A stretch of DNA of 47,271 bases from a virus (taxonomy: Duplodnaviria > Heunggongvirae > Uroviricota > Caudoviricetes), in IMG/VR virus record IMGVR_UViG_2839594473_000016. One strand, written 5' to 3'. Below, one piece after another: positions 6,001 to 9,000 of this stretch. The position numbers were made by a program. Each line of letters opens with the position of its first letter. The stretch's first letter is position 1.

Positions 6001-9000
6001 ATAAATGTTCCCACTGAACATGTGCAAACCTAAAAAGACAGTGTTACAATAATATTCATCCATGGTCTCTAAATCAACGCCACGCAACAGGATAATACAA
6101 TGAAAATATTTCAGGAAAAGATTCTTTTGCATGCTCCGTTAGCATATCAGTCAGCACAGCGGTACAAGTAAAAACATTATTTCTTCCTTGTAGCCTGTCT
6201 AAAATATCATTGTAATAATAAACTGAGCCAAATACCTGAGGATCTGTTTTATAAGCTTGTTCAATCAATCCATTTGCATATCTCCGTAGAATCTCAGGAG
6301 AATCATACTCTGTACCAAACATATCACTCGATGAGTATTTACAGAAAACCCCCCCTAAACAAAATAATATTTCAGCCTGTTTTCTTAGTGGCATATCTTT
6401 CAATACATGGCTCCCCATAATCATATCTACATGCTGAGCGTTCAGTTCCCAACCATCAAGAAAGGGATTCCAGACACAGGCAAGTTTCCTTTGCTGATCA
6501 TCAGCAATCATTTTATAATCTGATTTATTGGAATTAAGTGCCTCAATAAATCTCTCTTTGAGTTCATTATCAGAAATGAGTATATCCAGAATACCAGAAA
6601 CGAAATTCTGGGAAAAAGCTTTATGATAAGGAATACTGAAAATTGGAAATGATTCAGAAAAAAGATTGCTCAATGAATACCCAAATGTATTTTGAACTTC
6701 TCCATCCTTATATAAAAAAAAGGACATCCAATTAGTTGATGTATTAGGAGATAACATATCAACCATATGACTCAAAGAACACATCATTGCCATACCATCA
6801 TCCTGTGATGATAACAAAACCCAGTTATAAGCCAAATCGGAATCATCATCCCAGTCAGGCTTCCCAGAGCCATCGCACAATCCAAAATCACTCTGCTGTG
6901 TGACAGGATAAACTTTTTCATTTTTTAAATATACTTCATAGAGTTCCCTAAATCGTTCCTGCATTCCATCACGCCGTGAACCATTCATTACAATTTGTAT
7001 AAAGGAACTATTATAAGATACCATCGCACCTGGATGTCGCTCAAAATACATCCCTGCCTGCAATAAACTACCATTCTCCATATACATCATTATTGAATTA
7101 TTAAACCAAGACATTATAGTATCAAAAAAGTCATCACATATAGGCTCGAGCCATTGCTGTATATTTGCGTTGTTCAAATAAGGATGAATACTAAATGAAT
7201 CAGCCAAAGACATCTTAACATAGGGCCGGAACGCCGCTAATTCGTCAAGAGATATTTTTTTGATAAGTTCTTCAGCGGCCCTTACTTTATCATGGTTATA
7301 CTTATCATCAGATGTATTCATAGTCAATAAAATTGATTTATTTGATTTTGTATAGTTATCCAACACAGATAATATATTTTCCTGTATGTCAGATAGATCT
7401 ATGTAACACCCTCCTAGATTAATGGTATTACTTTTTTCACTAAAGAGCTCCTTTACATCACCTAAGATAGCACCACTTAAAACCATTCCAGGAATTATAA
7501 TAGCTCCTGTTAAATCAGCCTCGTTCAAAATTGGAGGATATTGTATATATGAAGATCCTTTAAATGATGCATTTTTAAGATTGGAATTGCTGAAATTAGA
7601 GTTTTCAAACAAAGCCCTAATAATACAATTAGATAAATTAGCATAACAAAAATTACATTCATTCAAAATCGAGTTTTTAAAAGAACAGTTTTCCAATACA
7701 GCCTGAGACAAATCACTCATCCTGAGATCTGTATCATCAAGCACTGCTCCAGAAAAATTTACTGATGATAAATTCAGCCCTACAAGACTTAGACCTGACA
7801 AGTCACATCCAGAGTAATTCAATTCTTCAGCAGACTCTTCACCCGTTCGGTTAGCTGACAACCAAATTAAGTCAGCAGTAAGCTCAGCTTTGCTCAGGCA
7901 GGCACGGCCTTGACTGACATCATATGCAAGGAATTGACATTGCGATTCATTTAATGAATTACAGCCATTTAAATATACGGAATTTCTGAGTGCCTCAGGA
8001 AAGGAACCTTCTATATGTTTCAAAGAACTACAATGGCATAAAGATAAATTAATGACATTTTCAGGTATGCTGCAATTTATAACCTCTAATGATGAGCATC
8101 CAACCATACTTAATGAAGATAAGTTGGGGGGTAAGCAGTTTATTGATTTAAGCTCTGTACATCCATTCAAAACCAGTTCTTTCAGAGAACCTGGAAGCAA
8201 GTCTGGTAATGTTGTTATTGGCTCACTGATTGATAAAGTCTCTCCATTAGTACTTATAACATCAAGTATTTTTGATGCAACCTCATGACGATTTTCGCTA
8301 AATTCTCCCTCAGCACACCACTTTTCGAGGGCAACTTCAACATCCTCGTTAGATGGTGAATCTACAGGACTTTCAAAAGATATTACTCCAGAATTTACAG
8401 AGATATTTGTAGTGGGCAGCATTTATCTCACTCCTTTTTACTTAGTCCACTAAAGTAAAATTAGAAAACACAACTGCCGGGACAACTTTCTGTCCCTGTA
8501 CCCACAAATAAGATGTCAGATTTATCGGCATTAATTTAACTCCCTATTGAATTATCTCCTCTTTTTTATCTAACAAATATTCCCCGGACATGACAACAAA
8601 AACCGGAGCCGGACTCCGGTTTTGTGAAGCTGTCGGAATACGTGTCTGGTACCAGCCTTCGTTCATCTGACGGCGGAATCCCGGCATCTGCAGCGACAGG
8701 GCACGGATGGCTTCCGCTGCCGTGTTCACGTACAGGCTGAGGCGGCGGCCAAATCGTTGTAAATCCCCGTGAAGGCAGATACGTGCCAGTGGCGGTGACG
8801 CCAGGCTGAATGCGTTCGTCGTTGCCATTTTTCGGAATACCTCTCCCGTTTACTCAGTTGTTCAGGCAGATGGTGAAGCAGTTCACCGTTGCCGCAGTAT
8901 ATGGCGGCATGATTGGCCACCGATGCGCCAAAGCAGCACAGCAGGATATCGCCCGCCTGTGCAGAGGACAGGGGCACCCGGTAAAAGCCGGTGACCGCCA

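Follow-up and report, generated by a model that had tools for sequence, protein, structure and literature searches.

The exchangeable effector loci, which Tobe et al. are said to have described in 2006 as clusters of effector genes downstream of the tail-fibre genes of EHEC lambdoid prophages, hold their T3SS effectors in the interval that separates the tail-fibre operon from the attachment site. In EHEC lambdoid prophages, the cargos nleL/espN, nleG, nleC and nleA all follow a common tail-fibre 3′ end and hairpin. In phage lambda, the tail gene I encodes 223 amino acids, and J, lom, stf and tfa lie downstream of it. The E. coli O157:H7 lambdoid prophage Sp6, whose integration site lies between potB and potC, differs from the other exchangeable effector loci in that its tail-fibre boundary genes are deleted and the locus adjoins a truncated I (I′). 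The loss of the host-specificity genes from Sp6 was published in 2009, the prophage of the strain Sakai having been scored as "minor tail: disrupted; host specificity: absent" (PMC2669165); it is nonetheless transferable at a low frequency, which the authors credit to complementation by other prophages (PMC2669165). In the published tables consulted, only the class of the defect is given, without the exact breakpoint, the microhomology or the ancestral arrangement.

The window analysed here—the whole stretch of 47,271 nucleotides of the IMG/VR record IMGVR_UViG_2839594473_000016—is the Sp6 prophage of E. coli O157:H7 Sakai, either as such or as a strain variant. The genes and products of the two correspond one for one (K, ECs1558; truncated I, ECs1559; EspX7/NleL, ECs1560; EspN, ECs1561; numbers and gene order according to the supplementary data of PMC5931665), both exhibit an IS-interrupted tail gene between ECs1551 and ECs1554 as well as the IS2 InsD at ECs1564, and there is no substantive difference between them. 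The region 8000–9500 is 100% identical to other O157:H7 genomes. The stretch 8423–8830, i.e. the end of the tail genes and the spacer preceding the effectors (Table 1), is very probably the scar of one internal deletion of about 6.5 kb in Sp6. It should be pointed out that the scar is real but ordinary: its outline has already been published and it involves no new mechanism.

Table 1 Features at the junction of the tail genes and the effector cargo in the window
Feature	Position	Strand	Basis or remark
espN (ECs1561), T3SS effector	2082..5483	-	Pfam DUF4765; RefSeq
nleL (espX7, ECs1560), T3SS effector	6074..8422	-	Pfam SopA, SopA_C, pentapeptide; RefSeq
Native spacer (214 nt; hairpin, 29-codon annotated ORF 8442-8531, nleL Shine-Dalgarno)	8423..8636	-	Identical in the O111:H8 and PV15-279 prophages directly after stfC
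Chimeric ORF ECs1559, 94 codons (annotated "tail assembly protein")	8544..8828	-	64 I codons + 30 spacer codons
Conserved intrinsic-terminator-like hairpin, stem CCGGAG/CUCCGG + A-U pairs, loop UCCGG	8598..8623	-	Folding
Deletion junction	8636..8637		blastn of the O111:H8 prophage; sequences read base by base
I 5′ remnant, 64 codons spanning roughly half of the N-terminal Lambda_tail_I domain	8637..8828	-	DNA identity with intact I ends at 8637
K, tail-tip assembly gene (ECs1558-type), intact	8726..9463	-	Pfam Prok-JAB (JAB/MPN) + NLPC_P60

The gene K shares 96% identity with K of the O111:H8 prophage described below, and its 3′ end overlaps the start of I by 103 nt, exactly as in lambda (14773–14875). 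The expectation that the I homologue would follow its lambda counterpart for about 65 codons proved correct to within a codon, since residues 1–64 align with lambda I without a gap (64% identity, E=1e-30), nothing aligns past residue 64, and the same 64 residues align with the intact 226-aa I of the O111:H8 prophage. The ORF was also thought to stop at the hairpin, which is not the case; it traverses the hairpin for 30 further codons, down to a stop at 8544–8546, and these last 30 residues do not match the intact I. The product still matches the Lambda_tail_I profile (PF06805) with 37.7 bits against a gathering cutoff of 23.8, its residues 15–60 covering, however, only the profile positions 3–46 of 83. 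A full-length I would have about 190–226 residues, a Gly/Ala-rich hydrophobic middle and a conserved C-terminal part, to which the 94-aa ORF, with its similarity ending at residue 64, does not correspond, and the ECs1559-type gene is treated in RefSeq as a pseudogene without the C-terminus. The chimeric ORF is thus a truncated remnant of I and not a functional member of Lambda_tail_I. As a separate matter, ECs1559 has seeded a misleading annotation, "tail assembly protein, missing N-terminus", behind the tail-fibre genes in other genomes.

With regard to the remaining tail-tip genes, the original prediction that no J, lom, stf or tfa follows I was confirmed: a tblastn search of the whole window with J, lom, stfN and stfC of the intact relative returned no match at E≤0.01, so that the window lacks a complete lambdoid tail-tip/host-recognition module, i.e. 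J, lom and the side tail-fibre genes downstream of I. In an O157:H7 genome that matches the window perfectly over 8000–9500, RefSeq annotates only effector and IS fragments and espK beyond the left edge of the window, with no J, lom or tail fibre; the J homologue elsewhere in the prophage, named in advance as counter-evidence, was therefore not found. The two AT-rich effector-like genes anticipated directly beyond I turned out to be nleL and espN, the former encoding a HECT-like E3 ubiquitin ligase (PMC3082576). Together with espK, they lie between the spacer and potB, and their identities in Pfam and RefSeq make the locus an exchangeable effector locus.

The two closest relatives occupy the same integration site and carry the same cargo (nleL, espN, GogB and NleB fragments, espK). 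One is the potB/potC lambdoid prophage of the O111:H8 strain 7-54 11A, with the order K-I-J-lom-stfN-stfC-hairpin-nleL-espN, the other a decayed potB/potC prophage of the atypical O157:H7 strain PV15-279. Unlike the window, both keep stfC, stfN, lom and J upstream of the spacer, and the O111:H8 prophage also the full I. In PV15-279, J is a fragment, another segment having been lost there, from the J N-terminus through the exo gene. In blastn, the positions 5068–12153 of the O111:H8 prophage correspond to 1551–8636 of the window with 99.94% identity and 18683–19898 to 8636–9850 with 95.7% identity, the intervening 12154–18682—I from codon 65 onwards, J, lom, stfN, and stfC up to and including its stop—being missing from the window. 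The size of the deletion, 6,529 bp, is given relative to this O111:H8 prophage, which, with only 95.7% identity in the K/I region, is not the exact ancestor. The distal breakpoint is found 2 nt beyond the stop codon of stfC, at the beginning of the spacer that normally spans from the last tail-fibre stop codon to the nleL start codon. The base 8636 (C on the minus strand) can be assigned to either side, corresponding to a microhomology of 1 nt. A 7-nt repeat, ACCGGAG, of which one copy belongs to the lost portion of I and the other to a hairpin arm, was considered as a recombination substrate; the junction lies, however, about 20 nt upstream of the repeat and the repeat was rejected, since the bases between the two derive from the stfC side.

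As far as the hairpin is concerned, it had been placed at 8605–8630, which needs correction (Table 1), while its description as a GC hairpin with A- and T-runs holds. On the minus strand, AAAA precedes the first arm and UUUUU with a subsequent GUUGU follows the second one, the 3′ flank being UUUUUGUUGU. The hairpin by itself has a folding energy of -15.6 kcal/mol; in a 61-nt context the minimum on the minus strand is -21.3 kcal/mol (z = -3.9; 0 of 200 shuffles as stable). It shares with intrinsic terminators the stable GC-rich stem, the U-rich tract directly behind it on the transcribed (minus) strand and the conserved location at the 3′ end of a transcription unit, 18–21 nt after the last operon gene in intact relatives; it differs from them in that a part of the stem consists of A-U pairing with the U-run itself. 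A simple terminator scanner did not list it because, with the stem extended into the A-U pairs, too few U's are left after it. Rfam contains nothing relevant at this position, either for the whole window at gathering score or for 8300–8900 at a permissive E-value, the best match being STnc290, whose 21 bits (E=0.35) fall short of the gathering score of 60.

The hairpin had been regarded as a feature of the truncation, which is not supported: it is a generic element that hundreds of EHEC/EPEC lambdoid phages carry behind their last tail-fibre gene. It occurs at 7,168 places in 705 E. coli genomes, and 297 phage records match a wider 218-nt query (8423–8640). In 119 of the 121 IMG/VR instances, all anchored on the tail-fibre 3′ end only, it lies 18–21 nt past the tail-fibre stop codon, and it comes immediately behind the last tail-fibre gene in all the contexts inspected, i.e. 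VT1-Sakai, VT2-Sakai, JLK-2012, BP-4795 and prophages with nleG/nleC cargo. A search of genome contigs anchored on the same 3′ end yielded one 725-bp "Xanthomonas pisi" contig, probably a contamination. Lambda has another inverted repeat after tfa, non-homologous to the Sp6 hairpin. Among nine aligned phages and the 121 IMG/VR instances, the stem is unvarying except for one G-C to G-U change (five instances), and the loop and the lengths of the A- and T-runs vary; without a two-sided compensatory change in the stem, covariation speaks neither for nor against the structure. The sequence, position and conservation of the hairpin point to the standard terminator at the end of the tail operon of EHEC/EPEC lambdoid phages, and the deletion would merely have brought it next to I′.

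Whether the hairpin could insulate the effectors is another question. Late transcription of lambdoid phages is carried out by a Q-modified, terminator-resistant RNA polymerase (PMC7547250), so that one intrinsic terminator would hardly suffice to halt it, which makes the insulation of the effectors under Q antitermination doubtful. The hairpin might rather stop non-antiterminated upstream transcription in the lysogen, e.g. from the arc/ant moron or K, and the Q-modified polymerase would largely pass it during late transcription; nleL could then be driven by a putative promoter of its own or by residual read-through. A simple consensus scan for a sigma-70-like promoter (at least 8 of 12 matches) found none between the hairpin and nleL, which is not taken as the absence of one. 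In RNA-seq after SMX-TM induction, the Sp6 tail genes were not induced (PMC5931665), so these data are uninformative on read-through into nleL; a Term-seq dataset for Sakai exists as GSE143631 (PMC7547250).

Viewed alone, the window fits an insertion boundary, with the GC content falling sharply at 8500 (27–37% in the nleL and espN genes versus 54–60% in the tail genes), the I homology ending abruptly and a stable hairpin in between, and the original prediction held that the cargo had been inserted in place of the 3′ part of I, J, lom, stf and tfa, bringing its own bidirectional terminator that would insulate the effectors from the late operon. This explanation has become extremely improbable, because the spacer (8423–8636), the hairpin and the cargo are found unchanged downstream of the tail-fibre genes in both the O111:H8 (99.94%) and PV15-279 prophages, the window positions 1–8636 being 99.98% identical to the latter, IS2 insertion included. 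The cargo thus occupies its usual position, and the tail genes disappeared through a separate internal deletion. The hairpin, moreover, stands behind the tail-fibre genes in hundreds of phages, whichever cargo follows, and the breakpoint 2 nt after the stfC stop makes it part of the phage backbone and spacer, not of a recently acquired cassette. The comparison with intact lambdoid I–J genes, suggested along with that prediction, bears out the truncation of I and contradicts a replacement of the tail genes by cargo. Very unlikely, too, is a chimera, i.e. illegitimate recombination between two co-resident lambdoid prophages instead of a deletion within one. O157:H7 does harbour numerous lambdoid prophages that are nearly identical, the strain TR01 having 24 K/I-like places, and the K/I flank resembles an O145:H28 prophage from another site (98.5%) more than the O111:H8 prophage at potB/potC (95.7%); mosaicism of the backbone can, however, predate the deletion, and the PV15-279 remnant, located at the same chromosomal site, shares with the window both the int/xis end (100%) and the cargo with IS2. 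With both prophage ends in common, an internal deletion is the simplest account.

The hairpin might also serve mainly as the terminator of an sRNA or of convergent plus-strand cargo, or as a conserved "linker" for cargo exchange, which we regard as unlikely. In VT1-Sakai, the plus-strand cargo ORF H0002 converges on the element and overlaps it, and the symmetry of the A- and T-runs would permit termination on the plus strand; such convergent cargo is, however, seen only elsewhere. In the window, K, I′, nleL and espN—and hence both neighbours of the hairpin—are all on the minus strand, with no convergent unit, and the minus-strand tail UUUUUGUUGU is far better than the plus-strand tail UUUUGUGAAG, in which the short UUUU is followed by GUGAAG (plus-strand fold z = -2.5). 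The predicted bidirectionality is weakly supported. The hairpin is also a recurrent point of rearrangement, IS629 being inserted in the T-run in BP-4795 and two IMG/VR contigs ending within the 3′ arm. Concerning sRNAs, a multicopy prophage sRNA of 66 nt is known in EHEC, the Hfq-binding HnrS (EcOnc10-12), complementary to the hha RBS and the mazF 3′ end (PMC13502914); it was, however, reported from Sp9, Sp10 and Sp12 and not from Sp6, and its three Sakai copies (PMC13502914) stand against 12–16 hairpin matches per O157 genome in the sampled rows; the hairpin itself has no significant Rfam match. No complementarity to the mazF 3′ end was seen at any of the loci examined, in what was a weak search. 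It is distinctly unlikely that the hairpin and its short conserved flanks constitute a dedicated module-boundary element of both long- and short-tailed EHEC/EPEC lambdoid phages, acting as terminator and as a favoured site of recombination, IS insertion and cargo swapping, and that the Sp6 deletion also alters the regulation of nleL; if true, nleL, lying about 200 nt downstream of the late genes K/I′, would be co-expressed with them upon Q-antiterminated induction, in contrast to strains whose tails are intact.

The internal deletion very probably proceeded from an ancestral prophage with the order K-I-J-lom-stfN-stfC, then the spacer with the intrinsic terminator and the cargo (nleL, espN ... 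espK) by the attachment site. Illegitimate recombination at the 1-nt microhomology would have joined codon 64 of I to the spacer at the second base behind the stfC stop, with a loss of about 6.5 kb, and translation of the I stump would continue for 30 meaningless codons through the spacer and the hairpin. The I′–spacer junction is present in 275 of 5,426 complete genomes, each at no less than 99% identity, which excludes an assembly artefact, and all the carriers with a serotype label are O157 (60 rows sampled); the nleL region is found in 481 genomes. The junction is one inherited event.

Sp6 would accordingly make no I, J or side tail fibres, and its tail tip would be supplied by other resident lambdoid prophages, as published for Sakai. 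The scar documents at base resolution the inability of Sp6 to build its own tail tip, and the deletion contributes to an explanation of the dependence of Sp6 on helper prophages for the transfer of nleL and espN. The tail-tip defect represents one event that has been fixed in the typical O157:H7 lineage, for which the deletion scar is a possible marker.

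The genes around 8423-8830 all lie on the minus strand and comprise, in the order of transcription, the tape-measure gene H (interrupted by an IS element), M, L, an arc/ant moron, K, a 94-codon ORF (a truncated I), nleL and espN, with IS2 and other fragments situated to the left of espN. The GC content drops from 54-60% across the tail genes to 27-37% across nleL and espN, these type III secretion effector genes being the two AT-rich, effector-like genes originally predicted next to the truncated I. Over 8000-9500 the sequence matches E. coli O157:H7 chromosomes at 100% identity, and the gene order, compared with a published expression table, is that of ECs1549-ECs1564 of Sp6, the defective lambdoid prophage of strain Sakai, on which NleL (EspX7, ECs1560) has been placed (PMC3082576).

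Coordinates of the features in the window and, where an L-number (compared locus) is given, in related prophages
Feature	Coordinates	Strand	Remark
Transposase fragment	1-354
IS2 copy	634-1539 (InsD ORF)		RefSeq CDS with internal stop
GogB-like fragment	1551-1714		95.7% identity to a segment near the espK 3' end
espN	2082-5483	minus
nleL	6074-8422	minus
29-codon ORF	8442-8531	minus	MPINLTSYLWVQGQKVVPAVVFSNFTLVD; hypothetical protein WP_115801847.1
Second small hairpin	8479-8496		GGGACA/TGTCCC
94-codon ORF (truncated I)	8544-8828	minus	stop codon 8544-8546
Hairpin	8598-8623	minus	8605-8630 in the original prediction
K	8726-9463	minus
P22 immI-like moron	9517-11172
Antirepressor Ant	9517-10395	minus	part of the moron
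sar antisense RNA	10397-10463	plus	Rfam, 66.7 bits
L	11189-11914	minus
M	11887-12228	minus
Tape-measure gene H	12221-15283	minus	IS-interrupted
IS629-type element	15286-16592		ends TGAACCGCCCCGG; 3-bp target duplication ACT
ALIL pseudoknot	16144-16260		Rfam
STnc100 sRNA	33931-34097		94 bits
sok antitoxin RNA	37721-37895		114 bits
'Missing N-terminus' label	L003 12061-12153
'Missing N-terminus' label	L006 10010-10102
'Missing N-terminus' label	L004 8445-8521
'Missing N-terminus' label	L005 7104-7181
I-J spacer	L003 17959-18194		236 nt

Several further elements accompany these genes. The moron between L and K carries Ant, sar and two Arc-family ORFs, and the sequence left of espN (1-1714) is a patchwork of a transposase fragment, an IS2 copy and a GogB-like fragment. 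Gene H is split by an IS629-type element, which has the ALIL pseudoknot as its frameshift signal and is absent from O157:H7 TR01 and the O145:H28 relative. The STnc100 and sok RNAs, both above the Rfam gathering score, lie in the prophage's regulatory part.

Residues 1-64 of lambda I align without gaps with the 94-residue product (64% identity, E=1e-30), nothing aligning past residue 64; the alignment with the intact 226-residue I of a related prophage covers the same 64 residues, and the Pfam profile Lambda_tail_I is matched by residues 15-60 only (profile positions 3-46 of 83). The overlap between K and I, 103 nt, is the same as in lambda. The predicted truncation after about 65 codons thus holds, as does the loss of the downstream genes: no match to J, lom or the two tail-fibre proteins of the intact relative was obtained by tblastn across the whole window, and an O157:H7 genome that is identical over 8000-9500 has no such gene annotated to the left of it. 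The observation is thus borne out, with small corrections, namely that the ORF does not end at the hairpin but runs on across it to its stop codon, and that the hairpin, stable and indeed located after the I homology, lies slightly off the position first given. It should be noted that in intact prophages RefSeq gives about 90 nt past the last tail-fibre gene the label 'tail assembly protein, missing N-terminus'; these nucleotides equal the non-I tail of ECs1559, the chimeric O157 ORF, and bear no resemblance to genuine I. The label seems to be an artefact of annotation spread from the deletion product.

In the O111:H8 strain 7-54 11A, the prophage between potB and potC (L003) has the order K-I (full length)-J-lom-stfN-stfC-spacer-nleL-espN-fragments-espK-potB, stfN and stfC being the N- and C-terminal tail-fibre genes. 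By blastn, L003 5068-12153 corresponds to window 1551-8636 (99.94%) and L003 18683-19898 to window 8636-9850 (95.7%), the 6,529 bp of L003 between them—I from codon 65 to its end, J, lom, stfN and stfC—being missing from the window. Side-by-side comparison of the I side (...ACGTATT C GCGG...), the stfC side (...AAG TAA C C CGACAGC...) and the window (...ACGTATT C CGACAGC...) reveals a single C common to both sides, and therefore an illegitimate join with 1-nt microhomology. Since the distal breakpoint lies two bases past the stfC stop codon, the 214-nt spacer 8423-8636, hairpin included, is normal stfC-to-nleL sequence. The decayed counterpart from O157:H7 PV15-279 (L006) equals window 1-8636 at 99.98%, even in the IS2 insertion, with an int/xis end at 100%; upstream of the spacer it keeps stfC, a frameshifted stfN, lom and a J fragment, a different phage block having been lost. 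Taken together with O111:H8, this arrangement implies that the tail-tip genes of the Sp6 ancestor stood in their normal place. The proposal that effectors had replaced J and the tail fibres is, judging from the compared sequences, wrong, the same spacer and cargo sitting behind tail-fibre genes in both relatives. PV15-279 keeps the tail fibres and cargo but has lost most of the phage, the C-terminal J fragment being fused directly to an exonuclease-gene fragment beside xis/int (L006 12417-14860).

The deletion also removed the I-J spacer, which in L003 holds a terminator-like hairpin on the plus strand (CCCGCAG...CTGCGGG, then ATTTTTTT), in antisense orientation to the late genes; another strain carries a sodC insertion at that point. 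HnrS, a 66-nt multicopy sRNA, is reported from Sp9, Sp10 and Sp12, not from Sp6 (PMC13502914).

The retained hairpin lies thirteen bases beyond the I homology and reads AAAA-CCGGAG-UCCGG-CUCCGG-UUUUU, then GUUGU, on the minus strand; its stability is -15.6 kcal/mol alone and -21.3 kcal/mol in context (z = -3.9, none of 200 shuffles being as stable). The 106-nt segment around it (8535-8640) was matched at 7,168 sites across 705 E. coli genomes (median 11 per genome with any), and the 218-nt segment 8423-8640 in 297 phage records, mainly of Stx-converting phages. In all the annotated contexts that were inspected—prophages carrying nleG or nleC cargo, the short-tailed VT2-Sakai, VT1-Sakai, JLK-2012 and BP-4795—the element directly follows the stop codon of the final tail-fibre gene, regardless of what comes next, identity being kept through the hairpin and falling off beyond. 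An IMG/VR search anchored solely on the tail-fibre 3' end placed it 18-21 nt past the stop codon in 119 of 121 instances, with U-runs of 4-6 nt, A-runs of 4-7 nt, six loop variants and a stem invariant except for one G-C to G-U change (5 instances). Such variation is as would be expected for a constrained structure; two-sided compensatory stem changes were absent from these instances, so it is not covariation evidence. The hairpin with its T-run is also a recurrent rearrangement point, IS629 being inserted within the T-run in BP-4795 (L010 ~2440-2540) and the 3' arm breaking off after CTCC, with a different hairpin behind it, in two IMG/VR contigs (L054, L127). A 725-bp contig of the Xanthomonas pisi DSM 18956 assembly (NZ_JPLE01000138.1, L012) carrying the 3' end of an E. 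coli lambdoid tail-fibre gene with the hairpin is probably contamination.

From its position, stability and conservation, the hairpin is most likely the intrinsic terminator of the tail-fibre operon. That it insulates the effector genes from late-operon transcription, as had been suggested, is unlikely and unsupported, because lambdoid late genes are transcribed by Q-modified RNA polymerase, which is known to ignore intrinsic terminators (summarised in PMC7547250); more plausibly, it would stop ordinary transcription in the lysogen. The term 'bidirectional' applies weakly in the window, the plus-strand tail being UUUU followed by GUGAAG, with no convergent gene on that side; VT1-Sakai has a cargo ORF on the plus strand that converges on the element. 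In one induction RNA-seq data set the Sp6 tail genes were not induced. A simple scan for sigma-70-like promoters found none in the interval from the hairpin to nleL. The 29-codon ORF in this interval, which contains the second small hairpin, accompanies nleL in O111:H8 and PV15-279.

Of 5,426 complete E. coli genomes, 275 contain a match of at least 99% identity to a 161-nt junction probe (window 8560-8720), the nleL region being found in 481 genomes; among 60 sampled junction rows, all serotype-labelled genomes were O157, including EDL933, EC4115, 86-24 and Xuzhou21. Such a distribution is consistent with a single event passed down in the typical O157:H7 lineage.

In lambdoid prophages of EHEC, the placement of effector clusters behind the tail-fibre genes, which Tobe et al. 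are said to have described in 2006, is already known. In the 2009 analysis of the Sakai prophages, Sp6 is rated 'minor tail: disrupted' and 'host specificity: absent', together with defects in portal, head, repressor and recombination functions; Sp6 nevertheless excises and transfers to K-12 at low frequency, which the authors explain by complementation from other lambdoid prophages (PMC2669165). The feature is real, yet it is a defect already known in a known prophage, and what is new is modest: the exact breakpoint, its 1-nt microhomology, the gene order of the ancestor as reconstructed from O111:H8 and PV15-279, and the finding that the hairpin is generic.
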